Counted from the first letter of the stretch, positions 21,739 through 54,566 are shown. The stretch is DNA of 61,701 nt from Methanomicrobiales archaeon (GCA_035517575.1 DATIYO010000012.1:1-61701); one strand, 5' to 3'. The notes: generated by a model not told the origin, from the sequence alone. Numbers and translations are program-made.

Positions 21739-21754
21739 GCCCGGCCGACTCCTT

Positions 21755-23940: not shown

Positions 23941-24060
23941 AGATGCGAGCGGCTCACCTCACGCGCCCCCGGGAACGATTCCCCTGCATTCTATTTGGAA
24001 CGGAGGCTATATATGCGATTCCCCTCCGGACCGGCCCGCCCGGCACGTCGGAGATCCCGG

Positions 24061-26203: not shown

Positions 26204-26318
26204 CCTCGAGAGGAACCGCCGGGCAAACCCTGGCGAGCTTCCGGAAGACGACAGGCCGGGCGGGAGATCCCCTGTCCGTCCCCCTGAAGGTTCCCCGCCC
26301 GGAACGGACGCGGTTATC

Positions 26319-27068: not shown

Positions 27069-27070
27069 GC

Positions 27071-30634: not shown

Positions 30635-30670
30635 CGCTACCCCCTTTACAGAAGGATGGGGAGGCGGCGG

Positions 30671-30681
30671 TATTAAAAGGG
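30671..30681 (-). promoter_or_regulatory. Putative TATA box (minus-strand CTTTTAATACC)
   Basis: This is the only AT-rich patch in the 81-nt gap. It lies ~40 nt upstream of ATG 30634. Confidence 0.3.
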
Positions 30682-30715
30682 TACGTGGCGGGAAAGGCGG
30701 GCGGGAGGGTTCCCT

Positions 30716-31930: not shown

Positions 31931-31973
31931 GGCGACAAGGAGTATGGGACCCTTCCCATGTTAGCGTTTCTCG

Positions 31974-33431: not shown

Positions 33432-33559
33432 TGGAGATCAGGGTTTGCTATGGTCGGGAATAAAGGTGCTGATGCCTTCCTGACGCCTTTGGGGGGATAA
33501 TTCGGGGTCTCCCGGGCCTGAGGGGACGTCCTCCCGGTTCACCGGATCGGGGGAGGGGG

Positions 33560-35449: not shown

Positions 35450-35453
35450 CGGG

Positions 35454-36323
35454 TCAGGCTCCCTTGCCCGGGGTTGCCTCGGCGGCGACGTAGAGGTAGC
35501 GGCCGATCTCGGCATAGTCGCCGGCGAGCTGGATTTCGAGGCTCCTGAGGGCCTCGCGCCCCTCCGGATCGAGGGACGACGGGACGCAGACCGCCGCGAA
35601 CGGGTCGCCAGGGATGCCCGAGAGGATCCCTATGCCCCGGTGCCTGAGAGATCGCAGGCCCAGTCGGGCGAGCATGGCGTCCGTGCTCGCCCCCGTGTGC
35701 CAGTGGAGGAGCATGCCGTCCAGTCTCCCCGAGAGTTCCCGCGCCACCAGGGAGGCCGTGTGCCAGTCTCCCCGCTGAACGGCCGCGAGCAGGTAATAGG
35801 CGCGGGTCCTCAGTGACAGGATCAGGAGGCCGCCCTCCCGTAACCATCCCTTGAGTTCCCTGACGAACCCGTCCGGATCCTCGACCATGTAGAGGACTTC
35901 GGTGCAGAGAATACAGTCGAAGAGCTCATCCGGCAGGGCTGCCTTCAGCGCAGGGAGATCGCCGGTCACCCACCGGATTTCGGCCCCCTCGGCCGCGGCA
36001 TAGGCACGGGCCTTCCCGATGGCATCGCCGGAGATGTCCAGCCCGGTGACGGTGTGCCCGTCCCTGGCGAGGGGGATGGAGAGGCGCCCCTGGCCGCAAC
36101 CGACGTCAAGGACCTTCACCTTCCGGCCGCCGAACCTGGCGCCCAGGTCCTCGCGGATGAAGTGGAGGTAGATGCCGGCGTAGTAGTCCTCGGAGGGCTC
36201 GCTGCGCATGTCGTACCGTGACGCCGTCCTCTTCAGGGAATACCGCTGGTACCGGTTCGGGGCCAGGGCCCGCAGGATCCTCCCGTACGCCCCCTCCATG
36301 AGATCCCGGACGCCTTGTTTCAA
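35454..36323 (-). CDS. Class I SAM-dependent methyltransferase
   Basis: The start is TTG 36323, preceded by GGAGGA 7 nt upstream. Motifs are VKVLDVGCGQGRLSIPLARDGHTVTGLDIS and ILCTEVLYMVEDP. Confidence 0.75.
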   Translation of the reverse strand: MKQGVRDLMEGAYGRILRALAPNRYQRYSLKRTASRYDMRSEPSEDYYAGIYLHFIREDLGARFGGRKVKVLDVGCGQGRLSIPLARDGHTVTGLDISGDAIGKARAYAAAEGAEIRWVTGDLPALKAALPDELFDCILCTEVLYMVEDPDGFVRELKGWLREGGLLILSLRTRAYYLLAAVQRGDWHTASLVARELSGRLDGMLLHWHTGASTDAMLARLGLRSLRHRGIGILSGIPGDPFAAVCVPSSLDPEGREALRSLEIQLAGDYAEIGRYLYVAAEATPGKGA

Positions 36324-36390: not shown

Positions 36391-36510
36391 TAGCCGGGCC
36401 CGGGAAGGGCGGGAGTTCGAAACCCGTGGTCCCGTTGCCGGTCGATCCGGGCCCGATCCGATGGATCCCCGTTGAGACAATTCATATCTCCCGCGGGCCA
36501 ACATCGATAT

Positions 36511-37635
36511 ATGGAACCGATCCCGGTATCCCGCCCCTCTCTCGGGGAGGAAGAACTCGCGGCGGTGCGGAAGGTCTTCCTCTCCGGCTGGCTCGGCCTC
36601 GGGGCGGACGTGCTGGAGTTCGAGAAGGCGCTCGCCGGGTTCCTCGGCGCCCCCCAGGTCGTCTGCACGAACACCGGGACGACCGCCCTCCACCTCGCCC
36701 TGGACGCCCTCGGGATCGGGCCCGGGGACGAGGTGATCCTCCCCTCCCTCACCTTCGTCGCCTCTGCCCAGGCGGTAGCGGCGACGGGGGCGCGCCCGGT
36801 CTTCTGCGACATCGGGACGGAGGACTTAAACATCGACGTGGAGGACGCCAGGTCGAGGGTCACCCCGAGGACGAAGGCCATCCTCCCCGTCCACTACCGG
36901 GGCATCCCCTGCGACATGGACGCCCTCGCCGACCTCGCCGCCGACCGCGGCCTCCACCTGGTCGAGGACGCGGCCCATGCCTTCGGGTCCTCGTACCGGG
37001 GGAAGCGGATCGGGTCCTTCGGGGAGATGGCCTGCTTCAGCTTCGACCCCATCAAGAACATCACCTGCGGGGAAGGGGGCGCCGTGGTCTTCAGGGACGG
37101 AGGGCTCCTCGAGCGCATCCAGCAGAAGCGGATCCTCGGGATCGACAAGGACACCTGGAGCCGGTACCGGAACGAGCGGAGCTGGTTCTACGACGTGGTG
37201 ACCCGGGGGTACCGGTACCACATGAGTAACATCAACGCCGCGATCGGGCTCGTCCAGATCCGGAAGTTCGAGGCGATGAACCGGCGGAAGGTCGAGGTGG
37301 CGCGCCGGTACGACGAGGCCTTCGGGGACCTCGACGGGATCGAGCTCCTGGAGAACCGCGGCTACGACGGGATTGGCCTCTTCGCCTACATGGTGAAGGT
37401 GCGGTCCCGCCGGAACGAGCTGATGGACCACCTCGCGGCGAGGGGCGTGGGGTCGGGCGTCCACTACATCCCGAGCCACCTGTTCTCCTACTTCCACGAG
37501 GAGGGGCTCGTCCTCCCCGCGACCGAGCAGGTCTATAAGGAGATCCTCTCCCTGCCGCTGTTCCCCGACATCACCGACGAGCAGGTCGATCGGGTGATCC
37601 GCGAGGTCGGGCAGGGGCTGAAGGAACCCGGATGA
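36511..37635 (+). CDS. DegT/DnrJ/EryC1/StrS-family PLP sugar aminotransferase (copy 1)
   Basis: This is track ORF 36472..37635, which starts at TTG. ATG 36511 gives MEPIPVSRPSLGEEE. Motifs are TALHLAL, VEDAAHAFGS and FSFDPIKNITCGEGG, which carries the PLP lysine. Confidence 0.85.
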   Translation: MEPIPVSRPSLGEEELAAVRKVFLSGWLGLGADVLEFEKALAGFLGAPQVVCTNTGTTALHLALDALGIGPGDEVILPSLTFVASAQAVAATGARPVFCDIGTEDLNIDVEDARSRVTPRTKAILPVHYRGIPCDMDALADLAADRGLHLVEDAAHAFGSSYRGKRIGSFGEMACFSFDPIKNITCGEGGAVVFRDGGLLERIQQKRILGIDKDTWSRYRNERSWFYDVVTRGYRYHMSNINAAIGLVQIRKFEAMNRRKVEVARRYDEAFGDLDGIELLENRGYDGIGLFAYMVKVRSRRNELMDHLAARGVGSGVHYIPSHLFSYFHEEGLVLPATEQVYKEILSLPLFPDITDEQVDRVIREVGQGLKEPG

Positions 37636-38450
37636 CCCCCGAAGCGCCCCCGCCCGACGCCGGCCGGCCGCTCGTGAGCGCGGTCCTCCCCGTCTACAAC
37701 GGCGAGAGGTACCTCGCGCAGACCCTGGAGAGCCTCCTCGGGCAGACCTACCCGGCCCTCGAGGTGGTCGCGGTCGACGACGGTTCGACGGACGGGAGCG
37801 CCGCCATCCTGGACGGGTGGCGGGAGCGGTTCGGCGGAAGGCTCCTCGTCCTCCATGTCCCGAACGGGGGCGTCAGCAGGGCGAGGAACCTGGGGGTGGA
37901 GCGGGCGAAGGGGGCCTGGGTCGCCTTCATCGACCAGGACGATCTCTGGCTCCCCGACAAGGTCTCCCGCCAGGTGGAGGCCCTCACCGGCTCGGGTTCG
38001 CGCATCAGCTTCACGAACACGGCCCTCATCGACGGCGAGGGACGGGTCCGCTCCCCCCGGGTGAGGCGGTTCCCGAAGGGGGACGGGGTCGACTGGTTCG
38101 AGAAGGTCCTCTTCGACCCGCTCGTCGCGATCTCCTCGGTGATGGTAGAGCGGGCCCTCTTCCTCGAGATCGGGGGGTTCTCCCCGGACCTGCGCATCTC
38201 CGAGGACTATGACCTGCTCCTCCGGATCCTCTGGAAGGAGAAACCGGCGGTGGTGGACGAGCCCCTCCTCCAGTACCGGGTCCACAAGGGGAGCAACACC
38301 TTCCTCACCCCCGACTCGCTCCTCAGGGAGGGGGTCATGATCATCGGGCGGTGGAAGGCCGCCCACCCGGAGATCTTCCGGCGGAACCGGCTGAAGTACT
38401 CGGTCTTCCGGTGCAGGGTCGCGTTCATGCGGATCAAGTCCATCTTTTAG
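37632..38450 (+). CDS. Glycosyltransferase family 2
   Basis: Motifs are VSAVLPVYNGERYL, VVAVDDGSTDGS and AFIDQDDLW. The ATGA overlaps the aminotransferase stop. Confidence 0.85.
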   Translation: MTPEAPPPDAGRPLVSAVLPVYNGERYLAQTLESLLGQTYPALEVVAVDDGSTDGSAAILDGWRERFGGRLLVLHVPNGGVSRARNLGVERAKGAWVAFIDQDDLWLPDKVSRQVEALTGSGSRISFTNTALIDGEGRVRSPRVRRFPKGDGVDWFEKVLFDPLVAISSVMVERALFLEIGGFSPDLRISEDYDLLLRILWKEKPAVVDEPLLQYRVHKGSNTFLTPDSLLREGVMIIGRWKAAHPEIFRRNRLKYSVFRCRVAFMRIKSIF

Positions 38451-38511
38451 CCGTCTTCCCGCTGGCGCCCGTGGGAACTATTTAAGGAGGGCGCGAAAGA
38501 GATCATACTGG

Positions 38512-39573
38512 ATGAAGGGCCTGATCCTCTCGGGGGGGCACGGGACACGCCTGCGTCCCCTCACCTATTCCCAGCAGAAGCAGCTCATCCCGGTCGCGAA
38601 CAAGCCCATCCTCTTCTACGGGATAGAGGACCTCATCGGCGCGGGGATCCGCGAGATCGGCATCATCGTCGGCCCGAACCGCGAGCAGGTGAAGGAGGCG
38701 GTGAACGCCGTCCCCTGGGACGCCCGGATCGAGTTCATCGAGCAGGACGCCCCGAGGGGGCTCGCCCATGCCGTGAAGATCGCGAAGCCCTTCCTCGGCG
38801 ATGACCCGTTCATCATGTACCTCGGGGACAACCTCCTCAGGGACGGGAGCGCCGACTTCATCCGCGACTTCGCCCGCTCGGGCGCGGACGCGAGCCTCCT
38901 CCTCACCGAGGTGAAGGACCCCACCCAGTACGGGGTCGCCCTCGTGGACGAGCAGAAGAAGGTCATCATCCGGCTCGTGGAGAAGCCGAAGGTGCCGCCG
39001 AGTAACCTCTCCATCGTCGGGATCTACGGCCTGACCCCCGCCATCTTCGAGGCCATCGACCACATCGAGCCGTCCTGGCGGGGCGAGCTCGAGATCACGG
39101 ACGCCCTCCACTGGCTCATCCAGAACGGGTACGAGGTGCGGTACCGCATGGTGAGCGGCTGGTGGAAGGACACGGGGAAGACCGAGGACATCCTGGAGGC
39201 GAACCGGCTCATCCTCGACATGGTGGAGCCGGCGGTCTCGGGCACCGTCGAGGGCTCCACCATCGAGGGGAGGGTCTCCGTCGGCAGGAACACGGCGGTG
39301 AAGGAGGGCTCGGTCATCCGGGGCCCGGTCATCATCGGGGACGACTGCACCATCTCGGGGAGCACCATCGGCCCGTACACGAGCATCGGCAACCGGGCGA
39401 CCGTCGTGAACACCGGCATCGAGGACTCCATCGTCATGGAGGGGACGCAGATCGTGAACGGGGAGCGGATCGCGAGGAGCCTGATCGGGAGGGACGTGAG
39501 GATCGGGAGGGACGGCGAGGCCTCCCCCGCCCGCCAGTACGTGCTCGGCGACAGCTCGGAGGTGAGACTGTGA
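38512..39573 (+). CDS. rmlA: Glucose-1-phosphate thymidylyltransferase (long archaeal form with a left-handed beta-helix C-terminal domain)
   Basis: MKGLILSGGHGTRLRPLTYSQQKQLIPVANKPIL is present. The C-terminal hexapeptide repeats read VSGTVEGSTIEGRVSVGRNTAVKEGSVIRGPVIIGDDC. Confidence 0.8.
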   Translation: MKGLILSGGHGTRLRPLTYSQQKQLIPVANKPILFYGIEDLIGAGIREIGIIVGPNREQVKEAVNAVPWDARIEFIEQDAPRGLAHAVKIAKPFLGDDPFIMYLGDNLLRDGSADFIRDFARSGADASLLLTEVKDPTQYGVALVDEQKKVIIRLVEKPKVPPSNLSIVGIYGLTPAIFEAIDHIEPSWRGELEITDALHWLIQNGYEVRYRMVSGWWKDTGKTEDILEANRLILDMVEPAVSGTVEGSTIEGRVSVGRNTAVKEGSVIRGPVIIGDDCTISGSTIGPYTSIGNRATVVNTGIEDSIVMEGTQIVNGERIARSLIGRDVRIGRDGEASPARQYVLGDSSEVRL

Positions 39574-40037
39574 TCGCGGGGGTCGCGACGAAGGCCCTGA
39601 AGGCCATCTGCGACGAGCGCGGGAGGCTCATGGAGATCCTCAGGGCAGACGACCCGATGTTCGCGGGGTTCGGGCAGGTCTACCTCACCACGACGTACCC
39701 CGGGGTGGTGAAGGCCTGGCACCTCCACCGGCGCCAGACGGACGTGGTCTGCTGCATAAAGGGCGAGATCCAGCTCGTCCTCCACGACCCCCGCGACGGC
39801 TCGCCGACCCGGGGCGAGGTGGACGAGTACCGCCTCGGGGAGGGCAACCCCCTCCTCGTCTCCATCCCGCCGGGCGTGCACCATGGCTGGAAGTGCGTCT
39901 CGCCCGGGGAGGCCTTCGTGATCAACATCCCCGACAAGCCCTACCGGCGCGAACAGCCCGACGAATACCGGCTCCCCCCCGACTCGGGGGAGGTCCCGTA
40001 CCGGTGGGTCCTCACCCCCGGCCTCAGGCACGGGTGA
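39570..40037 (+). CDS. rmlC: dTDP-4-dehydrorhamnose 3,5-epimerase-like cupin
   Basis: The tail of track ORF 39162..40037 starts at GTG 39570 (GTGA overlap with the rmlA stop). The sequence reads DERGRLMEIL...GQVYLTTTYPGVVKAWHLHRRQTD...IPPGVHHGW. Confidence 0.7.
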   Translation: MIAGVATKALKAICDERGRLMEILRADDPMFAGFGQVYLTTTYPGVVKAWHLHRRQTDVVCCIKGEIQLVLHDPRDGSPTRGEVDEYRLGEGNPLLVSIPPGVHHGWKCVSPGEAFVINIPDKPYRREQPDEYRLPPDSGEVPYRWVLTPGLRHG

Positions 40038-40040
40038 CCC

Positions 40041-40985
40041 ATGCGCATCCTCGTCACCGGCGGGGCCGGTTTCATCGGGAGCAACTTCGTCCGCTACCTG
40101 CTCGCGCACCACCCCCGCGACGAGGTGGTGGTCCTCGACAAGCTCACCTACGCGGGCCGGCTCGAGAACCTCGAGGGCACGATGGACCGTATCACCTTCC
40201 TCGCGGGGGACATCACCGAGCCCCGCCATGTCGAGCGGGTCGGGTCCTGCGACGCCATCGTGAACTTCGCGGCCGAGACCCATGTCGACCGGTCCATCGC
40301 CGACGCGGGCGTCTTTGTCAAGACCGACGTGATCGGGACCTTCGTCCTCCTCGAGTACGCGAGGAGGGAGGGGGTCGGGTCCTACCTCCAGGTGAGCACC
40401 GATGAAGTGTACGGGAGCCGGAAGACCGGATCCTTCACCGAGGCCGATCCCGCCGACCCCTCCTCGCCCTACTCGGCGAGCAAGGCGGGCGCCGACCACC
40501 TCGCCCTCGCCTACTTCAAGACCTACGGCCTCCCGGTCCGGATAACCCGCTCGTCCAACAACTACGGCCCGTACCAGTACCCCGAGAAGCTCATCCCCGT
40601 CATCGTCATCAGGGCCCTCCGGGGCGAACCCCTCCCCATCTACGGGAAGGGTGAGAATATCCGGGACTGGCTCTACGTCGAGGACAACTGCTCCGGCATC
40701 GACACCGTGCTGCGGAAGGGGCGGGCCGGCCAGGTGTACAACATCGCGTCGGGTGAGGAGCACCGGAACATCGACGTTGCACGCCTGGTCCTCTCCCTGA
40801 CGGGGAGGCCCGAGAGCCTCATCAGCTTCGTCGCGGACCGGCCGGGGCACGACCTCCGGTACTCCATCACCACGGCGAAGGTCCGGAAGCTCGGCTGGCG
40901 GCCTGCCCGCTCCTTCGAAAAAGGCATGGAGGACACCGTGGCCTGGTACCGCGCGAACGAGGCCTGGTGGGGGCCGCTCGTGTGA
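40041..40985 (+). CDS. rmlB: dTDP-glucose 4,6-dehydratase
   Basis: Motifs are MRILVTGGAGFIGSNFVRY, FAAETHVDRS, STDEVYG, YSASKAGADHL and SNNYGPYQYPEKLIP. Confidence 0.9.
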   Translation: MRILVTGGAGFIGSNFVRYLLAHHPRDEVVVLDKLTYAGRLENLEGTMDRITFLAGDITEPRHVERVGSCDAIVNFAAETHVDRSIADAGVFVKTDVIGTFVLLEYARREGVGSYLQVSTDEVYGSRKTGSFTEADPADPSSPYSASKAGADHLALAYFKTYGLPVRITRSSNNYGPYQYPEKLIPVIVIRALRGEPLPIYGKGENIRDWLYVEDNCSGIDTVLRKGRAGQVYNIASGEEHRNIDVARLVLSLTGRPESLISFVADRPGHDLRYSITTAKVRKLGWRPARSFEKGMEDTVAWYRANEAWWGPLV

Positions 40986-41052: not shown

Positions 41053-42171
41053 ATGAATATCCCCGCGGCGAAGATCTACTTTCCACCGGAGGACCGGCGG
41101 GATCTTGCACAGCAGATCGAGGGAATCCTCGCGAGCGGCCAGCTCACCCTCGGGAAGTACGGGAAGGAGTTCGAGGAGCGCTTCGCGGAGTTCACCGGCA
41201 CGGCCCATGCCGTCTGCGTGAACAGCGGGACCTCGGCCCTCGAGATCATCCTCCGCTCCCTCGGGGTGAAGGACGCGACGGTCATCGTCCCGACGAACAC
41301 CTTCTTTGCCACTCCCGCCTCGGTCATCCACGCGGGCGGACGGGTCAGGTTCGTGGACGCGAGCCCGAACCTCGACATGGACCCCGCGGCCGTGGACCGG
41401 GCCATCGACCGGACCACGAAGGGGGTCATCCTGGTCCACATCGGCGGGGCCGTCGCCCCCCAGGTGCGGGAGATCCGCGAGATCTGCGGGGACCGCGGCC
41501 TCTTCCTCGTCGAGGACGCCGCCCACGCCCACGGGAGCACCCTCGGGGGGAGGAAGGCGGGGTCCTTCGGCGTCGCGGGGGCCTTCTCCTTCTACCCCAC
41601 GAAGGTGATGACGAGCGGCGAGGGGGGCATGATCACGACCGACGATAAGAAGCTCTATGACCAGGCGCTCGTCCTGAGGGACCAGGGGAAGGCGGGCTTC
41701 CTCGGCAACATCCACACCGGCATGGGCTACAACTGGCGGATGAGCGAGATCCATGCCGCCATCGGCCTCTCCCAGTTCAGGAGGCTCGGGGAGTTCATCG
41801 CGGCACGGCGGCGGATCGCCGCCATTTACGACAGGGAGCTCGCGGGCATCCCGGACATCACCCCCATCCCCGTCGACCCCTCGGGGGAGTCCAACTACTA
41901 CAAGTACTGTGCGCTCCTCGCGGACGGGAAGGACCGGGCGGCGGTGAAGAAGGAGCTCAGGGAGAAGCACGGCGTGAGCCTGTCGGGGGAGGTGTACGAA
42001 CTCCCCTGCCACCTCCAGCCCGTCTTCAAGGAGGGCGGGGGCCCGGGCGAGGGGCAGTTCCCCGTGGCAGAGGACCTCTGCCGGAGGCATGTCTGCCTCC
42101 CCGTGTACGCGACCATGAAGGATGAGGAGGCAAGGTACGTGACAGACGCGTTGAGGAAGGTGCTCGCATGA
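41053..42171 (+). CDS. DegT/DnrJ/EryC1/StrS-family PLP sugar aminotransferase (copy 2)
   Basis: Motifs are GTSALEI, VEDAAHAHGS and FSFYPTKVMTSGEGG. It is clearly paralogous to copy 3 (46881..47987), and both share CHLQP near the C-terminus. Confidence 0.85.
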   Translation: MNIPAAKIYFPPEDRRDLAQQIEGILASGQLTLGKYGKEFEERFAEFTGTAHAVCVNSGTSALEIILRSLGVKDATVIVPTNTFFATPASVIHAGGRVRFVDASPNLDMDPAAVDRAIDRTTKGVILVHIGGAVAPQVREIREICGDRGLFLVEDAAHAHGSTLGGRKAGSFGVAGAFSFYPTKVMTSGEGGMITTDDKKLYDQALVLRDQGKAGFLGNIHTGMGYNWRMSEIHAAIGLSQFRRLGEFIAARRRIAAIYDRELAGIPDITPIPVDPSGESNYYKYCALLADGKDRAAVKKELREKHGVSLSGEVYELPCHLQPVFKEGGGPGEGQFPVAEDLCRRHVCLPVYATMKDEEARYVTDALRKVLA

Positions 42172-43070
42172 CGATCCTCGTCACCGGCGGCTCGGGGTTC
42201 ATCGGGTCCCACATCATCGACCAGCTCCTCGCGAAGGGCGAGGACGTGGTCATCTTCGACTTCGTGCAGCCCAGGTACTGGAAGTCGGTCAAGCACTTCT
42301 ACGGGAGCATCCTGAACCTGGACGAGCTCGAGCGGGCGATGCAGGGCGTGGACGTCGTCTACCACCTCGCGGCCATCGCCGACGTGAAGGACGTCTTCGA
42401 GCACCCGCACTACTCCGAGCGGGTGAACACCTCGGGCACCCTGAACGTCCTCGAGGCGGCGAGGAAGATGGGGGTCGGGCGGGTCATCTACGGGAGCACG
42501 GACTGGGTCTACCAGACCACCGACTCCGAGTCCGTGGACGAGACGACGCCGATCAGGACGCCCGCCCACCTCTACTCGTCGACCAAGCTCGCCTCGGAGT
42601 TCTACTGCCAGAACTACGGGGACCTCTACGGCGTGAAGTACACCATCCTCCGGTACGGCATCCCCTACGGCCCGAGGGCGAGGCCGGGGGCCATCGTCCC
42701 GATCTTCGTCGATAAGGCCCTGAAGGGCGAGGAACTCACCATCGCGGGCGACGGCGGCCAGTTCCGGCAGTTCATCTACGTCGAGGACCTCGCCGCGGGG
42801 AACGTGGCCGCCCTCCAGAAGGTCGCCGAGAACAAGATCTACAACCTCGACGGCCAGCGGCCCGTCACGGTGAAGGAGGTGGCCGAGGCGGTGATGAAGA
42901 TCATCGGGAAGGTCGGCATCAGGTACGTCCCCTCGAGGCCGGGGGACTTCCGGGGCAGGAAGGTCTCCTCCGAGAAGGCGAAGAAGGAGCTCGGCTGGGA
43001 GGCCACGACGCCCCTCGAGGAAGGGATCAGGAAGTACCTGGCATGGCTGAAGGCGACCGGCCAGGCCTGA
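42168..43070 (+). CDS. NAD-dependent epimerase/dehydratase (UDP-hexose 4-epimerase-like)
   Basis: Motifs are MTILVTGGSGFIGSH, YSSTKLASE and RYGIPYGPR. The ATGA overlaps the upstream stop. Confidence 0.8.
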   Translation: MTILVTGGSGFIGSHIIDQLLAKGEDVVIFDFVQPRYWKSVKHFYGSILNLDELERAMQGVDVVYHLAAIADVKDVFEHPHYSERVNTSGTLNVLEAARKMGVGRVIYGSTDWVYQTTDSESVDETTPIRTPAHLYSSTKLASEFYCQNYGDLYGVKYTILRYGIPYGPRARPGAIVPIFVDKALKGEELTIAGDGGQFRQFIYVEDLAAGNVAALQKVAENKIYNLDGQRPVTVKEVAEAVMKIIGKVGIRYVPSRPGDFRGRKVSSEKAKKELGWEATTPLEEGIRKYLAWLKATGQA

Positions 43071-43169
43071 TGAGCCGGATGCAGGACCGGGCACGGCCAC
43101 GCACGGCGGCGGGGGCCACGGGGAACGGCCCCGCTCCCCGCGGGCTCCCGGCAGGGGGATGAACCGGGG

Positions 43170-44261
43170 ATGAACACCCTTTTTCCGTCGATATCCTCGA
43201 ACCGCGAGCGGGACTATAACCGGGTCACCGGCCGGCTCGGGGCCATGGCGTACGAGCTGAAGCGGGGGAACCTGGTCCCCCACCTCGTGGACCGGATCAA
43301 GTGGAACCTCGCGCCGCGGCTCCACCACGTCGTCGGGTTTCCCACCCACGCCGACATCGAGACCGCGGTGAGCTGCCAGATGAGCTGCCCGATGTGCAGG
43401 CGCCGGCAGATGCCCGCGGACCTCCTCCAGGGGCTCATGGACTTCGGCCTCTTCAGGAAGATCATCGACGAGTGCGCGGAGAGGGGCCTCTACTCGGTGA
43501 AGCTCTCCTGGAGGGGGGAACCCCTCCTCAACCCCGACATCGCCGCCATGGTCCGGTACGCGAAGGAGAAGGGCATCCGGGACGTGGCGTTCCTCACGAA
43601 CGGCGAGCGGCTCACCAGGGAGATCTCCGCGGCGCTCGTCGACGCGGGCCTGGACTGGATCAGCATCTCCGTTGACGGCACGGGGGCGACCTACGAACGG
43701 ATCCGGTCCCCGTCGACCTACAAGGGGATCGTGGAGAAGGTCACGGCCCTGAAGGAGATCCGGGACGAGCGGGGCCGGACAAAACCCCTCATCCGGGTCC
43801 AGACCATCTACGGCGCTATCCGGGACAACCCGTCCGAGTACTTCGGCTTCTGGGAGAAGGTCGCGGACAAGGTGTACATCATCGCCGACCAGGGGCGGGC
43901 GACCGCGGCGAAGTTCCCCCGGGACCGGAACTACGCCTGCCTGGAGCCGTGGCGGAGGATCGTCATCGGCTGGAACGGCCTCGTGCCGCAGTGCATCTGC
44001 GACTACGACGACAGGAACCCGCTCGGCGACGTGAACCGCGAGAGCATCCATGCCATCTGGCATGGGAAGAGATTCAACGAGCTGCGTGCATCCCTCCTCA
44101 GGGGCGATCTCTTCATGAACCAGGTCTGCTGCGACTGCCACGATACGGGAGTCATGTACGAGAAGAAGATACACATCGGGGATCGGGAGATGACCATCGG
44201 GCTGTACCAGGGGCAGGAGCTCGACCTCGCCACCCTCGGGAAGCAGGAGCCCTCGCCATGA
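43170..44261 (+). CDS. Radical SAM protein with a SPASM/twitch-like C-terminal domain (paralogue of 27811..28788)
   Basis: The CX3CX2C motif CQMSCPMC lies at nt 43374-43397. WRGEPLLNPDIAAMVRYAKEKG follows, then the auxiliary motif CLEPWRRIVIGWNGLVPQC (Cx12Gx4C) and CCDC. Confidence 0.85.
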   Translation: MNTLFPSISSNRERDYNRVTGRLGAMAYELKRGNLVPHLVDRIKWNLAPRLHHVVGFPTHADIETAVSCQMSCPMCRRRQMPADLLQGLMDFGLFRKIIDECAERGLYSVKLSWRGEPLLNPDIAAMVRYAKEKGIRDVAFLTNGERLTREISAALVDAGLDWISISVDGTGATYERIRSPSTYKGIVEKVTALKEIRDERGRTKPLIRVQTIYGAIRDNPSEYFGFWEKVADKVYIIADQGRATAAKFPRDRNYACLEPWRRIVIGWNGLVPQCICDYDDRNPLGDVNRESIHAIWHGKRFNELRASLLRGDLFMNQVCCDCHDTGVMYEKKIHIGDREMTIGLYQGQELDLATLGKQEPSP

Positions 44262-44923
44262 AGGTGCTCGTCATCGCCCCCCACATGGACGACGAGGTGC
44301 TCGGGGCCGGGGGCACGATTGCCCGCCACGTGGCTGACGGCGACGACGTCACCGTCTGCATCGTCGCGCACCGGGTCTACGGGCACCGGTTCGACGAGAA
44401 GAAGAACCGGGTCGAGGTCGCGTGCGCGAACTCGGCGAGGAAGGTGCTCGGCTACCGGAAGACGACGTTCCTCGACCTTCCCGATGAACGGCTCGACGGG
44501 TGCCTCCAGGAGGTCCTGATCGGGCTCGAGAAGCAGCTGGAGAAAACCGGCCCGGAGGTCGTCTATGTCCCCCACCGGGGCGACATCAACCAGGACCACC
44601 GCGCCGTCTTCCAGGCGGCGATGATCGCCCTCCGGCCCCACGCGAGCCCGGGGGTCCGCCGGGTCCTCTCGTACGAGGTCCCCTCCTCGACCGACCAGGC
44701 ACCCCCGTTCCCCGAGTATGCCTTCCTCCCGAACTGCTACGTGAACATCGCGGACTTCCTGGAGAAGAAGCTCGAGGCCTTCCGCTGCTACCGGACCGAG
44801 GCGCGCCCCTTCCCCCATCCCAGGTCCGACGAGGGGCTCGCCACCGTGGCGAGGAAGCGGGGCACGGAGTCGGGGTTCCCCGCCGCCGAGGCCTTCGTCA
44901 TCGTGAGGGACCACCGGGCCTGA
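44258..44923 (+). CDS. PIG-L/LmbE-family N-deacetylase
   Basis: The tail of track ORF 43949..44923 starts at ATG 44258 (ATGA overlap). Motifs are MKVLVIAPHMDDEVLGAGGTI and HRGDINQDH. Confidence 0.8.
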   Translation: MKVLVIAPHMDDEVLGAGGTIARHVADGDDVTVCIVAHRVYGHRFDEKKNRVEVACANSARKVLGYRKTTFLDLPDERLDGCLQEVLIGLEKQLEKTGPEVVYVPHRGDINQDHRAVFQAAMIALRPHASPGVRRVLSYEVPSSTDQAPPFPEYAFLPNCYVNIADFLEKKLEAFRCYRTEARPFPHPRSDEGLATVARKRGTESGFPAAEAFVIVRDHRA

Positions 44924-44927
44924 TCCC

Positions 44928-45989
44928 ATGATCACCACCTGCTTCCGGGCCGATGCCTCCGTCGGGGTCGGGACCGGGCACCTCATGGAGTGCCTGACCC
45001 TCGCGGAGTCCTTCGGCCGGACCCTCTCCTCGGGCTCCCTCTTCCTCGTGAACGGGTTCGGGCCGGCCACGAGAGCCATCGGGGAGAAGGGGTACCCGTG
45101 CCGGATCGTGCCCGCGGGGATGTCCCAGGGAGAGGAAGCGGCGTGGGTCACGGAGACCGCGGGGGAGGCGGGGGCGAGGCTCATCGTCTGCAGCCTGCTC
45201 GGGCGGGACGATTCCTTCTACCGTGCCCTCAGGAGAAAAGGGGCCACCGTCCTCGCCATCCTCGACGATGCCGGCCCCACGCCGGTCCCCGCTGACCTCA
45301 TGGTGAACTTCAGCGTCCTCCAGGACGAGTCCCTCTACCGCCGGTACGGGGGCTCGGGCACCCGGTTCCTCCTCGGGCCGCGGTTCATGCCCATGGGGGA
45401 GGAGTTCCACGGCTACTGGTCCCGCCGCCGGCCGGTCCCCGAGGTCGCGGGGACGATCTTCGTGAACCAGGGCGGGAGCGACCCCTTTGGCCTCACCGCG
45501 AAGATCCTCCGCGCCCTCGAGCTCCTCGACCTCCCCCAGGAGATCGTGGTCGTCGTCGGGAGCGCCGTCACGGACGCCCACCGGCGGGAACTGAAGGCCA
45601 TCGGGAAGGAGTCGGGGAACACGTACTCGTTCGCCTGGGGGGTCACCCCGCGGGAGATGGGGGAGATCATGGACCGGTCAGACCTCGCCGTCACGGCCGC
45701 GGGGAACACCCTCTACGAGCTCGCCATCTTCGGGGTCCCCTCGATCATCGTCTCCCACCACGAGCGCCACCTCGCGGTCGCGGAGCGGTTCGCGGCGCTG
45801 GGGGCCGGCGTGAACCTGGGCATCGGCCCCACCCTGCCCGGGGCGGAGATCGCCCGGGCGGTCGGGAGGCTGCTCGGGTCGAGGGAGGAGCGGCAGGCCC
45901 TCTCGGACCGGATGAAGGGGATCGGGGACGGGCTCGGCTGCCAGAGGATCGCGGAGGCGGTGAAGTCGCTATGGCAAGGATCTTCCTGA
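44928..45989 (+). CDS. pseG: PseG-like UDP-sugar hydrolase (GT28-like fold; SpsG/PseG family)
   Basis: CFRADASVGVGTGHLMECLTLAE is the PseG N-terminal signature. NQGGSDPFGLT and a C-terminal GT-B half are also present. Confidence 0.65.
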   Translation: MITTCFRADASVGVGTGHLMECLTLAESFGRTLSSGSLFLVNGFGPATRAIGEKGYPCRIVPAGMSQGEEAAWVTETAGEAGARLIVCSLLGRDDSFYRALRRKGATVLAILDDAGPTPVPADLMVNFSVLQDESLYRRYGGSGTRFLLGPRFMPMGEEFHGYWSRRRPVPEVAGTIFVNQGGSDPFGLTAKILRALELLDLPQEIVVVVGSAVTDAHRRELKAIGKESGNTYSFAWGVTPREMGEIMDRSDLAVTAAGNTLYELAIFGVPSIIVSHHERHLAVAERFAALGAGVNLGIGPTLPGAEIARAVGRLLGSREERQALSDRMKGIGDGLGCQRIAEAVKSLWQGSS

Positions 45990-46897
45990 CCGGCGGGAGC
46001 GGGTACCTCGGGGGCGCCCTCCTCGGCGCGCTCCCCCGCGGCTGGGAGGTGGTCGCCCTCGGGAGGCGGCCGCCCGCGGGGAAGCTCCCTCCGTCGGTCC
46101 GGTTCGTGGCGGGCGACCTCGTCTCCCCCGACTGGGACCCGTCGGCGGTCGGGGGATGCGACGCGATCCTCCACCTCGCCGCCGTGAAGGGGGCGGACTC
46201 CTGCGCGGACAGTCCCTCCGAGGCCGTCGAGGTGAACGTCCTCGGGACCCACCGGCTCATCCGCGCCGCGCTCGCATACCGCGTCCCGCGGTTCGTCCTC
46301 GCCTCCACGTACTGGGTGTACGGCGGGCGGGCCGAGCCCCCCTTCGGCGAGGAGATGCCGGTCGCCCCCGAGGAGCTGTACGGGCTCACCAAGGCCGTCT
46401 CGGAGCTGGAGCTCGCCGGTTCGGGTCTCGACTACACGATCCTCCGGTTCGCGAACATCTTCGGGCAGGGGGCGGGGACCGGCCGCGAGGAGGTGGTCTT
46501 CCACTTCGTGACGAACGCCCTCAGGGGCGACCCCGTCAGGATCGACGGGGACGGGAGCCAGGAACTGGACTTCATCGATGTCGCGGACGTGGCAGGGGTC
46601 CTCGCGGCCGTGACCATGGACCCGAGGGCGTCCCGCCAGGTCTTCAACATCGGGTCCGGCCGGCCCGTGAGCATCCTCGACCTCGCGAACCGGATCCGGG
46701 CCATCGTCGGGGAGATGCGGGGCGCGGAGGTGCCGGTCGAGCGGCGGGGCCCGCCCGCTCCCCGCAGGGTCCGGCGGTTCGTCTCGATGGAGAAGTTCGG
46801 GAGGGCCTTTCCCGAGGTCCGCCTGACCCCGCTCGACGAATCCCTCAGGAGATACACCGCGATCCGGGAGGCTGAACTGCATGGTACAGGTCGCTAG
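45971..46897 (+). CDS. NAD(P)-dependent SDR epimerase/reductase (RmlD-like features)
   Basis: Motifs are MARIFLTGGSGYLGGAL, ASTYWVYGG and YGLTKAVSE. It overlaps pseG by 19 nt. Confidence 0.7.
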   Translation: MARIFLTGGSGYLGGALLGALPRGWEVVALGRRPPAGKLPPSVRFVAGDLVSPDWDPSAVGGCDAILHLAAVKGADSCADSPSEAVEVNVLGTHRLIRAALAYRVPRFVLASTYWVYGGRAEPPFGEEMPVAPEELYGLTKAVSELELAGSGLDYTILRFANIFGQGAGTGREEVVFHFVTNALRGDPVRIDGDGSQELDFIDVADVAGVLAAVTMDPRASRQVFNIGSGRPVSILDLANRIRAIVGEMRGAEVPVERRGPPAPRRVRRFVSMEKFGRAFPEVRLTPLDESLRRYTAIREAELHGTGR

Positions 46898-47987
46898 GCC
46901 TTATTTCAGGGACAGGGAGAAGATCCTCGGGAGGATCGCGAAGATCCTCGAGTCGGGCAGGCTGATGAACGGCGAGAACACCGCGGCCTTCGAGGCGGCC
47001 TTTGCCCGCACCTGCGGCGCGCGGCACGCCGTCTCCGTGAACTCCTGCACGACGGCCCTCGAGATCACCCTCCGCTCCCTCGACCTCCGCGGGGGCGAGG
47101 TGATCGTACCCGTGAACACCTTCATCGCGACCCCGAACTCGGTCATCTTCGCCGGCGGGAAACCCGTCCTTGCCGAGGTGAAGGAGGGGTCGTACAACCT
47201 CGGCATCGACGAGGTCCAGGAGAAGATCGGGCCCGCGACCCGCGCGGTCATCGCGGTCCACATCGCGGGGGTCGTCTGCGAGGACATCCTCGCGATCCGG
47301 AAACTCTGCGACGAATCGGGGGTCGCGCTCATCGAGGACTGCGCCCACGCGGTGGGGGCGACCCTCGGCGGGAGGATGGCGGGGACCTTCGGGCTCGCCG
47401 GCTGCTTCTCCTTCTACCCGACGAAGGTCATGACGACGGGGACCGGCGGGATGATCCTCACGGGGTCAGACGAGCTGGACGCCTTTGCGCGGAGCGCCCG
47501 GCTCCATGGCGCGAGCGGGAAGGGCACGAGCGAGATCGTGAACGTCGGGAACGACTGGTTCATGGACGAGATCCGGGCGGCGCTCGGCATCGGCCAGCTG
47601 GAGGACCTGGACTTCCAGCTCCGGCGGAGGAGGGAGGTGGCGAAGGCCTACCGGGCCCTGGTCGGCGAGCTCGACGGGTTCTCCTGCTTCCCGCTCCCGA
47701 AGGGATCGGTCCCCGCCTGGTACAAGTTCCCGGTCCAGGCAGGGGAGACCGTCCACCTGCCCCGCCTGAAGCAGCGGGCCTCTGAGAAGTTCCAGCTGGA
47801 GCTCGAGGCGGTTTACTGGCCGACCTGCCACCTCCAGCCGTATTACCGGCGGCTGTTCGGGTTCCGCGAGGGGGATTTCCCGACGAGCGAGGCGATCCTC
47901 TCGCGGCAGGTCTGCCTCCCGATCCACGGGCTCGTGACCGACGAGGACATCCACCAGGTGGCGGCGGCCGTGCGGGGCTCCCTATGA
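46881..47987 (+). CDS. DegT/DnrJ/EryC1/StrS-family PLP sugar aminotransferase (copy 3)
   Basis: Motifs are CTTALEI, IEDCAHAVGA and FSFYPTKVMTTGTGG. It overlaps the upstream SDR by 17 nt. Confidence 0.85.
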   Translation: MVQVARPYFRDREKILGRIAKILESGRLMNGENTAAFEAAFARTCGARHAVSVNSCTTALEITLRSLDLRGGEVIVPVNTFIATPNSVIFAGGKPVLAEVKEGSYNLGIDEVQEKIGPATRAVIAVHIAGVVCEDILAIRKLCDESGVALIEDCAHAVGATLGGRMAGTFGLAGCFSFYPTKVMTTGTGGMILTGSDELDAFARSARLHGASGKGTSEIVNVGNDWFMDEIRAALGIGQLEDLDFQLRRRREVAKAYRALVGELDGFSCFPLPKGSVPAWYKFPVQAGETVHLPRLKQRASEKFQLELEAVYWPTCHLQPYYRRLFGFREGDFPTSEAILSRQVCLPIHGLVTDEDIHQVAAAVRGSL

Positions 47988-48706
47988 TGGTCGGGATCCA
48001 CCAGCCCATGTACCTTCCCTGGCTCGGGTACTTCGACAAGATCCACCGGTGCGACACCTTCGTGATCCTCGACGACGCCGCTTACTCCCGGAATTACTTC
48101 GTCAACCGGAACCGGATCAGGACCAGGGAGGGCTGGATGTGGCTCACGGTCCCCGTACGTTCCAGCGGCCGGTTCGGGCAGCCCATCAACCAGGTCGAGG
48201 TGGACCAGGGCAGGCGCTGGCAGGCCAGGCACTGGCGGAGCATCGGCTACTCGTACGGGAACGCCCCCTTCTTCGGGGAGTACTCGGCGTTCTTCGAGGA
48301 GTTCTACGCGGGGGACCATGCCCGCCTCCAGGCGGTGCTCATGGATCCCCTCAGGTTCCTCCTGGAGTCCCTCGGCATCGGGACGAGGATCCTCCTCTCC
48401 TCCGAGCTCGGGGTGAAGGGCACGAAGGACGAGCGCCTCCTCGCCATCTGCCGCGAGCTCGGGGCCGACTCCTACCTCTCTGGCCCGTCGGGGAAGGACT
48501 ACCTGGACCCCGTCCCCTGGGAGGCCGAGGGCATCGCGGTGCACTTCCACGACTACCGCCACCCCGTGTACCCCCAGGTCCAGGGCGGCGACTTCGTCCC
48601 CGAGATGTCGGTGATCGACCTCCTCTTCAACTGCGGCGGGGACAGCCTCCGGGTCCTCACCGAATCCCAGCCGGACTACGGGGCGAAGGCCGCGGGGGGT
48701 GCCTGA
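47984..48706 (+). CDS. WbqC-family protein
   Basis: MMVGIHQPMYLPWLGYFDKIHRCDTFVILDDAAYSRNYFVNRNRI is the characteristic WbqC N-terminus. The ATGA overlaps the upstream stop. Confidence 0.7.
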   Translation: MMVGIHQPMYLPWLGYFDKIHRCDTFVILDDAAYSRNYFVNRNRIRTREGWMWLTVPVRSSGRFGQPINQVEVDQGRRWQARHWRSIGYSYGNAPFFGEYSAFFEEFYAGDHARLQAVLMDPLRFLLESLGIGTRILLSSELGVKGTKDERLLAICRELGADSYLSGPSGKDYLDPVPWEAEGIAVHFHDYRHPVYPQVQGGDFVPEMSVIDLLFNCGGDSLRVLTESQPDYGAKAAGGA

Positions 48707-49770
48707 TGACGTCCGCCGACGAGCGGATCAGGGCGCTCTTCGCGGGGGAAGACCACGTCTTCCTCATCGCCGAGGCAGGCTGCAACTACGAGGGGGACTT
48801 CGCCCGGGCGGAGGAGATGGTCAGGGCCGCGGCAGGGGCGGGCGCCGATGCCATCAAGTTCCAGACCTTCGTCCCCGAGCGGCTCGTGACGAGGGACGCG
48901 CCCAAGTTCTGGGACATCGAGGGGTGCCCGGGGGCCACCCAGTTCGAGGAGTTTGCACAGACCCCCCAGCTCGTCGAGGCCCAGTACCGCGCCCTGAAGC
49001 GGATCGCAGACGAGGAGGGGATAGTCCTCTTCTCGACGCCCTCGGACGAGAGCTCGGCCGACATGCTCGACGCGCTCGGCCTCCCCCTCGAGAAGATCAG
49101 CTCCATGGACATCACCCACCTCCCCCTGATCCGGCACATCGCGCGGATGGCGAAGCCCGTCATCCTCTCCACGGGGGCCTCGACCATGGACGAGATCCGC
49201 GAGGCGGTGACCGCCATCGAGGGGGAGGGGAACGACCGGATCGCCCTCCTCCACTGCATCACGAGCTACCCCACGCGGCCGGAGGACGTGAACCTGAACA
49301 TGATGAAGGCCATCATGGAGGAGTTCCCCGGATATCCGGTGGGCTACTCGGACCACACGACGATGCCCGAAAGCACGGGGGTGATCACGGCGGCGGTTGC
49401 CCTCGGGGCCCGGGTCATCGAGAAGCACTTCACCTTCGACCGCACCCGGCCGGGGTACGACCACGCGATATCGGCCGATTACCATGATCTCGCCGAGATG
49501 GTGAGGCAGATCTCCTTCACCCGCGGGCTCCTGGGGAGCGGCGTGAAGGCCCCCGTCGGCGCCGAGGAGCGGGCCCGGGCCTGGGCGCGGAGGAGCGTCG
49601 TCGCCCGGGTCCCCATCCCCCGCGGGACGCGGATCACCGGGGAGATGCTCGTCGTCAAGCGGCCGGGCACGGGGATACCCCCGAAGCATCTCGAAGGCCT
49701 CGTCGGCAGGGTGGCGGCCGTGGACATCGCCGGGGACCAGGTGATCACCTGGGAGATGATCGGCCGGTGA
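48706..49770 (+). CDS. NeuB-family nonulosonic acid synthase (NeuB/PseI/LegI/SpsE-like) with a SAF domain
   Basis: The tail of track ORF 48049..49770 starts at ATG 48706, overlapping the WbqC stop by 1 nt. Motifs are FLIAEAGCNYEGDFARAEEMVRAAAGAGADAIKFQTF, ILSTGAS, LLHCITSYPT and GYSDHT. The SAF C-terminus reads RSVVARVPIPRGTRIT...KRPGTGIPP. Confidence 0.85.
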   Translation: MTSADERIRALFAGEDHVFLIAEAGCNYEGDFARAEEMVRAAAGAGADAIKFQTFVPERLVTRDAPKFWDIEGCPGATQFEEFAQTPQLVEAQYRALKRIADEEGIVLFSTPSDESSADMLDALGLPLEKISSMDITHLPLIRHIARMAKPVILSTGASTMDEIREAVTAIEGEGNDRIALLHCITSYPTRPEDVNLNMMKAIMEEFPGYPVGYSDHTTMPESTGVITAAVALGARVIEKHFTFDRTRPGYDHAISADYHDLAEMVRQISFTRGLLGSGVKAPVGAEERARAWARRSVVARVPIPRGTRITGEMLVVKRPGTGIPPKHLEGLVGRVAAVDIAGDQVITWEMIGR

Positions 49771-54498: not shown

Positions 54499-54522
54499 GG
54501 GAGCTTATTTGCCCTCCCCATG

Positions 54523-54529
54523 TAAAATA
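54523..54529. promoter_or_regulatory. Putative shared or bidirectional TATA element (TAAAATA)
   Basis: This is the only AT-rich element in the 59-68 nt divergent gap. It is centred ~28 nt from ATG 54498 (minus) and ~32-41 nt from GTG 54558 / ATG 54567 (plus). Confidence 0.3.
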
Positions 54530-54566
54530 CCGGTGTCCCCATGAACCGGCCGCGGCGGTGTCCCTG

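Follow-up and report, generated by a model that had tools for sequence, protein, structure and literature searches.

Introduction

The radical S-adenosylmethionine (SAM) enzyme BtrN is the 2-deoxy-scyllo-inosamine dehydrogenase of the butirosin pathway (PDB 4M7T/4M7S), a pathway that also employs a DegT-family aminotransferase and a PIG-L deacetylase. BtrN, at 250 amino acids, joins an abridged barrel to a C-terminal twitch domain that holds a single auxiliary 4Fe-4S cluster. Here we describe a 61,701-nucleotide stretch of DNA from a Methanomicrobiales archaeon (GCA_035517575.1 DATIYO010000012.1:1-61701; hereafter the window), in which the gene for a radical-SAM enzyme with similarity to BtrN lies within a ten-gene cluster for the biosynthesis of a nonulosonic acid.

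Nonulosonic acids, among them the sialic, legionaminic and pseudaminic acids, are sugars displayed on flagella, archaella, S-layers, capsules and lipopolysaccharide (LPS), where they shape host and phage recognition. To our knowledge, the textbook pathways for these sugars involve no radical chemistry. An uncharacterised radical-SAM open reading frame (ORF), 13-c, is present in the LPS locus of Legionella pneumophila Lens and 130b (PMC3766260), and in Campylobacter fetus, radical-SAM genes subject to phase variation lie among those for methyl- and formyltransferases (PMC6321876). A full-text search of the literature outside subscription-only journals returned no paper tying radical SAM to nonulosonic, pseudaminic or legionaminic acid biosynthesis. 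A twitch radical-SAM enzyme of the BtrN type that serves as a conserved part of nonulosonic-acid biosynthesis would, on this showing, be a new variation on a known theme.

A twitch-type enzyme related to BtrN

Membership of the window protein in the radical-SAM superfamily is evident from an invariant CX3CX2C motif, a PF04055 match of 60.6 bits (cut-off 29.5) and an AlphaFold2 model (pLDDT 91.5, pTM 0.91) whose top fold matches are all radical-SAM enzymes. Its C-terminal region matches the Pfam SPASM domain (PF13186, 42.1 bits against a cut-off of 21.5), and an initial annotation of the window had labelled the protein SPASM-like. The distribution of conserved cysteines argues for a different class. 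Conservation was assessed in two alignments, the smaller with 33 homologues and the larger with 137 family members drawn from 81 loci. The three cysteines presumed to bind the SAM cluster (C69, C73 and C76) are invariant in 137/137 members, C257 and C275 are likewise invariant, and C320 and C323 are kept in 99% and 97% of members, respectively. Thus exactly seven cysteines are conserved, three plus four, and every other cysteine is present in at most 47% of the homologues. C277 and C321, which the initial annotation had counted, vary in both alignments, although the three cysteine motifs that it quoted do lie at the positions it gave.

The four C-terminal cysteines form the pattern CX17C-X44-CX2C. 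The first half of this auxiliary motif, CLEPWRRIVIGWNGLVPQC (CLEPW...PQC), matches CX9-15GX4C, the start of the full SPASM signature (CX9-15GX4C...CX2CX5CX3C...C), but beyond the CX2C there is no cysteine at +5 or +3. Because only four C-terminal cysteines are conserved, we assign the region to the one-cluster, twitch-type domains rather than to the seven-cysteine SPASM domains, with the cluster content predicted from the ligand pattern. Consistent with this assignment, the twitch-domain model NF033640 matches residues 256-326. No NCBIfam model reaches its cut-off on the protein.

When a profile of the 33-homologue alignment was searched against all PDB sequences, BtrN was the top match (E value 3e-25, with 34 bits from the core and 56 bits from the twitch domain). 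Weaker matches followed to CteB (2.7e-11), PqqE, SkfB, BlsE (1e-6), anSME (8e-6) and DesII (3e-4). A fold search with the AlphaFold2 model also placed BtrN (4M7T) first, with an E value of 1.1e-12 and a TM-score of 0.77 normalised on BtrN. Within the twitch domain (83 residues, 56 bits), C257, C275, C320 and C323 align with the four auxiliary-cluster cysteines of BtrN, which we take to be C169, C188, C232 and C235, such that the ligand spacing of the two proteins is nearly equal. No alignment with BtrN was obtained for the central part of the window protein (residues 139-287), which was compared to see whether the catalytic region of BtrN is conserved. The window enzyme is distantly related to BtrN and may work like it.

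We also considered a DesII-like deaminase acting after a DesI-like DegT enzyme on products of the nearby deoxythymidine diphosphate (dTDP)-sugar genes. This candidate was rejected because similarity to DesII is weak, and because the RmlA/C/B genes lie outside the conserved cluster when the window is compared with a 3.06-Mb Methanoregula-like genome (locus L001). The DesII fold match has an E value of 2.6e-9 but a TM-score of 0.41 on the target, and no DesII model is among the best 25 of 46 NCBIfam matches.

Association with nonulosonic-acid genes across genomes

One genome per GTDB species was scanned with the radical-SAM peptide motif only, yielding 80 loci whose ORFs were clustered into families and named by Pfam. 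Neighbours were counted within 10 kb of the radical-SAM gene in the 46 loci with at least 18 kb of sequence. A NeuB gene is present in 46/46 of these loci, which answers the question raised by the initial annotation of whether the two genes co-occur. Next most frequent are a CTP_transf_3 cytidylyltransferase (41/46), a PseG-like gene (38/46), PIG-L (36/46), a DegT or class III aminotransferase (34/46), and WbqC and a short-chain dehydrogenase/reductase (SDR), each in 32/46. Five of the ten loci that lack PIG-L carry instead a DUF4910/M28-peptidase-like gene. A deacylase of either type is therefore found in 41/46 loci, and the two types never occur together. Separate B12-radical-SAM genes are found in 15 of the 46 loci, and in L001 one lies downstream of the cluster.

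In four loci without PIG-L and WbqC (L022, L025, L036 and L037), DUF4910/DUF2172/M28-like and aminoglycoside-3-N-acetyltransferase-like (PF02522) genes flank the radical-SAM gene, which suggests that a triad of deacylase, radical-SAM enzyme and N-acyl(transferase) is maintained by non-orthologous genes. Replacement of this DUF4910-type/PF02522 kind was also seen in L033, L076 and L077 (examples lie at 8020-9375 of L036 and 9063-9977 of L037).

The family is large and forms many lineages. The window protein shares sequence words with 563 clusters at 90% identity, and 349 representatives match at E values of 1e-30 or below in a library clustered at 50% identity. The initial annotation had held that radical-SAM chemistry would be unusual in a nonulosonic-acid pathway; that view agrees with the literature but not with genomes, given these 349 clusters. 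Sequence clustering of 140 members from 81 loci yields 21 clades. The clade of the window protein has 47 members, one per locus, and its sister clade has 30, again one per locus. The many accessory clades hold paralogues that form tandem arrays of up to five or six copies (L053 8907-14206; L066 861-6222).

Archaeal carriers include Hadarchaeum, Altiarchaeota, DPANN lineages, Methanospirillum lacunae, Methanoregula and Methanosarcinales, and anaerobic bacterial carriers include Desulfovibrionaceae, Syntrophales, Elusimicrobiota, Omnitrophota and Kuenenia. The family is also found in aerobic or microaerophilic Pelagibacteraceae, Methylotenera, Gallionella, Rhodoferax, Aquabacterium, Chitinophaga and Xanthobacteraceae, and this distribution undercuts the proposal in the initial annotation that the enzyme provides a strict anaerobe with an oxygen-independent reaction. 

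In natural fusions, the radical-SAM domain is linked to NeuB with its SAF domain (P0142), CTP_transf_3 (P0173), an SDR (P0155), a D-2-hydroxyacid dehydrogenase (P0148 and P0203) and a methyltransferase (P0135 and P0196). Spiro-SPASM proteins (TIGR04321) likewise combine a cytidylyltransferase-like domain with a radical-SAM/SPASM domain. The two halves of TIGR04321 are matched by the window radical-SAM protein (residues 56-324) and cytidylyltransferase (residues 27-158). Unlike in spiro-SPASM, the window domains are encoded by separate genes 5.5 kb apart, and the two matches score only 42 and 19 bits against a cut-off of 250. Membership in that family was rejected on account of the weak matches, and we retain it as a fusion analogy, with P0173 as a closer one.

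Gene order is also partly conserved. In nine loci (L001, L005, L006, L011, L028, L041, L046, L067 and L068), the radical-SAM gene comes straight after a DegT-SDR pair. The order DegT, SDR, (short PseF-like cytidylyltransferase), radical SAM, PIG-L recurs in Lentisphaera and Altiarchaeota, and Hadarchaeum, Chloroflexota, Rhodoferax and Aquabacterium share the DegT-SDR pair with the radical-SAM gene after it. In the window's clade, DegT adjoins the radical-SAM gene in L015, L016, L018, L020, L031 and L064, and in a paralogous clade a class III aminotransferase does so (L038-L045). Genes for iron-dependent alcohol dehydrogenases adjoin DegT in L022, L029, L031 (e.g. 7009-8061) and L060. KdnB and KdnA are an oxidise-then-aminate pair that produces 8-amino-3-deoxy-D-manno-octulosonic acid (8-amino-Kdo), and by analogy such a dehydrogenase/DegT pair would be a non-radical counterpart of the chemistry proposed below.

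The cultured archaeon Methanospirillum lacunae Ki8-1 (L039 1-20888) carries a compact variant of the cluster without DegT or SDR. Its order is a family 2 glycosyltransferase (GT2), ABC-2/Wzt exporter, PIG-L, WbqC, carbamoyltransferase, a first radical-SAM gene (b), class III aminotransferase, cytidylyltransferase, a second radical-SAM gene (a), B12-radical-SAM, methyltransferase, NeuB, methyltransferase and PseG-like. Close relatives of this core order occur in Omnitrophota, Planctomycetota and Cytophagia (L042, L044 and L045), and Maridesulfovibrio (L048) has a reduced form without radical-SAM gene (b) or the class III aminotransferase. The appearance of such an order in distant phyla suggests horizontal transfer. 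In five other loci (L052 8232-9305, L056, L062, L065 and L075), sulfotransferase-family genes lie directly beside the radical-SAM gene, a hint that nonulosonic acids may be sulfated in Omnitrophota, Planctomycetota and Kuenenia.

Candidate reactions of the radical-SAM enzyme

The window enzyme is very probably a sugar-tailoring enzyme of the nonulosonic-acid pathway. The sugar-pathway role given to it by the initial annotation thus holds, with the interpretation as a whole partly supported. By analogy with its closest solved relative, the most likely chemistry would be a BtrN-like oxidation to a ketone, which we put forward as a tentative leading candidate. The entire explanation, wherein a twitch enzyme is a conserved, once-per-cluster component of nonulosonic-acid biosynthesis and operates by the proposed ketone mechanism, we consider to have slightly less than an even chance of being correct.

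In this mechanism, a 5′-deoxyadenosyl radical would remove a hydrogen atom from one of the sugar carbons of an intermediate, which might be a hexosamine (as its nucleoside diphosphate (NDP) derivative), the free nonulosonic acid or its cytidine monophosphate (CMP) ester, and whose amine would probably have been freed beforehand by the PIG-L deacetylase. The second electron would pass to the auxiliary cluster, as in BtrN, to generate a keto (or imine) intermediate. In the window, the aminotransferase DegT#2 could then aminate the ketone, or the epimerase-like SDR1 could reduce it from the other face, such that the sugar would gain an extra amino group or have an alcohol inverted. WbqC would re-derivatise the freed amine, and the PseG-like protein, NeuB and the cytidylyltransferase would complete and activate the nine-carbon sugar. 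A ketone product would suit the partners of the family, which is fused or adjacent to reductases of the NAD(P)H type and to aminotransferases from two unrelated families.

Several observations weigh against a reaction of the BtrN kind. Identity with BtrN is only 16-18%, and the window protein has 363 residues against 250. The roughly 110 additional residues include a conserved N-terminal extension, which throughout the family (about 360 amino acids) spans 55 mostly helical residues, and the core is longer than the abridged barrel of BtrN. The neighbours also differ, with NeuB, a cytidylyltransferase and a PseG-like gene in place of 2-deoxystreptamine genes; no aminoglycoside genes are present in the window or the 80 loci. 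With this identity, size and context the enzyme is not a BtrN orthologue, and its substrate must differ from that of BtrN. Twelve of the 46 loci have no aminotransferase within 10 kb, and some of these (e.g. L048) also lack an SDR, so that a fixed ketone-processing partner is not universal. Likewise, no one gene dominates next to the radical-SAM gene in the window's clade, the neighbours being variously WbqC, cytidylyltransferase, SDR, PIG-L, methyltransferases and DegT. The tight coupling to aminotransferases proposed in the initial annotation is therefore not borne out, the links with NeuB, the cytidylyltransferase and the deacylase being tighter. The hints as to the stage of action also diverge: DegT enzymes, which normally act on NDP-hexoses, point to the hexose stage, whereas the fusions to NeuB and the cytidylyltransferase point to the nine-carbon stage. 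Finally, an invariant Tyr175 could act as the hydrogen donor of an epimerase.

This last point bears on the strongest rival, in which the radical-SAM enzyme is itself a sugar epimerase that inverts one stereocentre, like HygY, NeoN or AviX12; we regard this reading as unlikely but deserving of serious attention. Candidate centres are C2 or C5 of a de-N-acetylated hexosamine and C4 or C8 of the nonulosonic acid. The clusters have neither the NeuC/LegG-type 2-epimerase nor the PseB-type 5-epimerisation, and an enzyme of this sort could stand in for either. Indeed, NeuC/LegG-type Epimerase_2 is essentially absent from the 80 loci, not being among the families matched by at least two of 114 unclassified ORFs of 300-450 amino acids, and window-type clusters have no dehydratase-type SDR. 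An epimerase would also fit a once-per-cluster core gene that always co-occurs with NeuB. The deacylase beside the radical-SAM gene recalls twitch epimerases acting on free-amine sugars, as in the hygromycin pathway. Known twitch enzymes on amino sugars include epimerases, so far as PMC10991966 and its reference list indicate. Compared by their descriptions, HygY and NeoN are likewise radical-SAM enzymes acting on free-amine carbohydrates, and HygY is expressly described as a twitch enzyme. However, both rely on a non-ligand cysteine to return hydrogen: NeoN uses Cys249 (PMC10991966), and HygY turns into a dehydrogenase on mutation of a single cysteine, according to a title cited in the same paper. 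No non-ligand cysteine is conserved in the family described here, which in this respect would resemble BtrN rather than the epimerases. Moreover, fusions to an SDR and to a 2-hydroxyacid dehydrogenase would be superfluous for a self-sufficient epimerase.

A second, improbable alternative is some other radical tailoring of the sugar or of its N-acyl group, such as C-C bond formation, a BlsE-type decarboxylation or a change to the acyl side chain, with each of the many paralogues making a different decoration. The breadth of the family (21 clades, with five or six tandem paralogues per locus at most) is consistent with this possibility, as are the formyl-, carbamoyl-, sulfo- and methyltransferase and B12-radical-SAM genes nearby and the presence of BlsE and AbmM among the weaker PDB matches. 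Yet the window's clade occurs once per locus, which indicates a common step rather than an optional decoration, and the protein has neither a B12-binding domain (PF02310 is absent from the Pfam scan) nor a HemN-type domain for methylation. A class B (B12-dependent) C-methylase, which was one option in the initial annotation, is unlikely for want of this N-terminal domain and was rejected.

Less probable again is dehydration by the radical-SAM enzyme with SDR1 as the partner reductase, the two together deoxygenating a vicinal diol or amino-alcohol of the sugar. AprD4/AprD3 provide the precedent for such a pair, which could for example yield the 9-deoxy (6-deoxy-hexose) position without a 4,6-dehydratase. 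Within the window's clade, at least 11 loci have an SDR beside the radical-SAM gene, the SDR fusion exists, and a dehydratase-type SDR is the very activity that window-type clusters lack. Against this, the best relative is a dehydrogenase rather than a lyase (DesII matches at 3e-4), many loci hold a LegB-like dehydratase (STSEVYG type) besides the radical-SAM gene, and many others have no SDR at all.

The last alternative, a SPASM-type peptide or cofactor maturase that lies in a sugar cluster by chance, is effectively refuted and was rejected: the Pfam SPASM label and the maturase-type top NCBIfam matches (TIGR04317 at 100 bits and TIGR04311 at 82 bits, in the radical-SAM core only) are outweighed by scores for TIGR04317, TIGR04311 and PqqE of 44-100 bits against cut-offs of 380-400, by the conservation of only four C-terminal cysteines, by the absence of a match to a recognition domain for ribosomally synthesized and post-translationally modified peptides (RiPPs), by a 99-nucleotide upstream gap that holds no precursor but only a spurious, out-of-frame, Arg/Gly/Pro-rich ORF of 39 codons, and by the all-sugar gene context with its constant NeuB and sugar-enzyme fusions.

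The ten-gene cluster and its partner enzymes

Gene calls were based on an ORF map, a coordinate script and Pfam/NCBIfam scans (Table 1). These confirm the four-gene block of the initial annotation (DegT#2, SDR1, radical SAM, PIG-L) with its coordinates and its two 4-nucleotide ATGA overlaps, DegT#2/SDR1 and radical-SAM/PIG-L. The true PIG-L start is the ATG in the second overlap, and the mechanical ORF start lies at 43949. The block does lie directly upstream of the PseG/NeuB module, but it is not self-contained: six further genes follow PIG-L on the same strand, spaced by overlaps or gaps of a few bases, such that the block forms the 5′ part of a ten-gene, operon-like cluster. No terminator-like site above chance level was found inside the cluster, and the ten-gene order is identical in L001. 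The NeuB gene with its SAF domain, the CTP_transf_3 and PseG-like genes, two DegT genes and two SDR genes are contiguous on one strand, which identifies the whole as a nonulosonic-acid cluster. The archaeal topoisomerase VI subunits A and B are encoded in the window, which has a GC content of ~68% and whose nearest relatives are labelled Methanomicrobiales and Methanoregula.

Table 1. Positions of genes and cysteine motifs in the window, with supporting family matches
Feature	Position	Strand	Match or content
GT4 (family 4 glycosyltransferase)	18837-19877		
AsnB-like amidotransferase	19879-21738		
SDR	23014-23940	-	
Second, diverged PseF-like cytidylyltransferase	27071-27985	-	
D-2-hydroxyacid dehydrogenase	29702-30634	-	
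Wzx-like flippase	31974-33431	-	
Methyltransferase	35454-36323	-	
dTDP-sugar module	36472-40985	+	DegT#1, GT2, rmlA_long, RmlC-like, RmlB
DegT#2, DegT/PseC-like pyridoxal phosphate (PLP) aminotransferase	41053-42171	+	PF01041 E 6.5e-107
SDR1, extended SDR, GalE/UXS/PelX-like	42168-43070	+	PF01370 E 8.6e-56
Radical-SAM enzyme, BtrN-like twitch domain, 363 aa	43170-44261	+	PF04055 + PF13186
CX3CX2C motif CQMSCPMC (aa 69-76; C69/C73/C76), predicted SAM-binding 4Fe-4S cluster	43374-43397	+	
Auxiliary motif, first half, C257-X12-G-X4-C275 (aa 257-275)	43938-43994	+	
Auxiliary motif, second half, CCDC (aa 320-323), C320-x-x-C323	44127-44138	+	
PIG-L/LmbE-family N-deacetylase	44258-44923	+	PF02585 E 1.3e-20
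PseG-like GT-B nucleotide-sugar hydrolase	44928-45989	+	TIGR03590 PseG E 9e-36
SDR2, second extended SDR, epimerase-like	45971-46897	+	PF01370 E 1.2e-39
DegT#3, DegT/PseC-like aminotransferase	46881-47987	+	PF01041 E 2.9e-100
WbqC-family protein	47984-48706	+	PF08889 E 4.2e-77
NeuB-family nonulosonic-acid synthase with SAF domain	48706-49770	+	PF03102 E 1.9e-77 + PF08666
Cytidylyltransferase (CMP-sugar synthetase-like) fused to LIC12162-family domain, 864 aa	49814-52408	+	
Another SDR	53560-54504	-	
LigD primase-polymerase domain protein, just past glycan region	54486-55442	+	PF21686 E 1e-74

Like the PseBCHGIF and LegBCHGIF pathways, the cluster brings together aminotransferase, PseG-like hydrolase, NeuB-family synthase and cytidylyltransferase. 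Unlike those canonical pathways, every member falls below its NCBIfam equivalog cut-off (LegB, for example, scores 125 bits against 475), the SDRs lack the PseB/LegB dehydratase motif, and neither a PseH/LegH acetyltransferase nor a NeuC/LegG epimerase is present. The radical-SAM, PIG-L and WbqC genes and the second DegT/SDR pair are additions to the canonical set.

Both aminotransferases keep the PLP lysine (in SFYPTK in DegT#2) and match PseC below the cut-off, DegT#2 with 243 bits (its best NCBIfam match) against 423 and DegT#3 with 214 bits. The structures nearest to SDR1 are UDP-glucose 4-epimerase 4ZRM (E value 3.6e-47), UXS and PelX, and those nearest to SDR2 are PelX 6WJB and MoeE5. 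SDR1 orthologues in 19 loci read ST-x-W-[VT]-Y in place of the dehydratase S-T-D-E, and SDR2 has the motif STYWVYG. On the evidence of motif and nearest structures, a PseB/LegB-type dehydratase identity was ruled out for both. In the ST-x-W-V-Y motif that the two SDRs share, an invariant Trp stands where 4,6-dehydratases carry Glu. Judged by sequence, SDR1 and SDR2 mark out a GalE-like subfamily, as yet uncharacterised, whose genes accompany those for PIG-L and DegT.

The PIG-L protein retains the PHxDDE metal motif (as PHMDDE). Its best NCBIfam match, BshB1, scores 55 bits, below the cut-off, and its nearest PDB entries are TT1542 and diacetylchitobiose deacetylase. The PseG-like protein scores 124 bits against a cut-off of 153.6 for TIGR03590, and NeuB scores 336 bits for TIGR03569 (cut-off 400) and 248 bits for PseI (cut-off 340). 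In the terminal fusion protein, residues 4-130 form a PseF/KdsB-like cytidylyltransferase domain (PF02348, E value 1.2e-23; PseF 28 bits against 206) and the LIC12162-family 'transferase' domain lies at about residues 580-790, with TIGR04331 matching residues 581-789. The same fusion is found in L001 (16727-19318; PF27859 LIC12162 recorded), and fusion-length members of this ORF family (600-652 amino acids) occur in L005 (9992-11792), L007 (7148-9016) and L011 (16661-18619). In such a fusion, activation of the nine-carbon sugar with CMP may be linked directly to the transfer step.

The WbqC protein has no PDB match by sequence, and its AlphaFold2 model (pLDDT 92) has no significant fold match. 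The best was BshC (E value 0.07, TM-score 0.41), followed by further weak matches to a cytidylyltransferase, class I aminoacyl-tRNA synthetases and other nucleotide-binding HUP-type folds. PIG-L and WbqC genes are usually adjacent across the loci, which makes deacetylation followed by re-derivatisation of the amine a reasonable lead. The same logic is found in BshB/BshC and MshB/MshC, in which a PIG-L-family deacetylase frees a sugar amine that a nucleotide-binding ligase re-acylates, although the WbqC resemblance to BshC is not significant. On the strength of the model, WbqC may follow PIG-L and derivatise the nitrogen in a nucleotide-dependent reaction. The Campylobacter protein Cj1324 is presumably a WbqC-family member. 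Its gene, ptmG (ORF 28 in L. pneumophila), is reported to turn CMP-Leg5Ac7Ac into its 5-acetamidino form, so that this tailoring takes place on the CMP-linked sugar (PMC3766260). The ptmG loci of Campylobacter and Legionella use NeuC/LegG-type enzymes, unlike the window cluster.

The surrounding glycan region

The ~35 kb that flank the cluster (18837-36323 and 52400-54504) form one large glycan-biosynthesis region. The D-2-hydroxyacid dehydrogenase encoded there belongs to a family that elsewhere is fused to the radical-SAM domain. Upstream of the four-gene block, the dTDP-sugar module carries a true RmlB (STDEVYG) with rmlA_long (471 bits, above the cut-off) and RmlC-like genes, and its DegT#1 is ArnB/PseC-like (319 and 316 bits). 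As noted above, the comparison with L001 places this module outside the conserved nonulosonic-acid cluster.

Significance

Beyond the single reaction, it is possible, if rather doubtful, that the radical-SAM family carries out a core step of an unrecognised and widespread route to sialic-acid-like sugars, one that replaces classical dehydratase or 2-epimerase chemistry and that in the window's archaeon yields a product of new structure. The module for such a route would consist of PIG-L (or a DUF4910-type deacylase), radical SAM, WbqC, PseG-like, NeuB and cytidylyltransferase, and radical oxidation or inversion of a de-N-acetylated intermediate would take the place of the dehydratase or 2-epimerase step. 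With the extra DegT/SDR pair in the window, that product might have an extra amino group or be a new epimer, and bear a non-acetyl N-substituent.

Because some carriers of the family can be cultivated, namely Methanospirillum lacunae, Aquabacterium sp. A7-Y and Desulfobaculum sp. SPO524, the question is open to direct experiment. Once characterised, the enzyme would represent a new reaction type for sugar biosynthesis. It would also provide a marker for predicting such glycans from genomes, and would probably explain unassigned nonulosonic-acid variants of environmental surveys.

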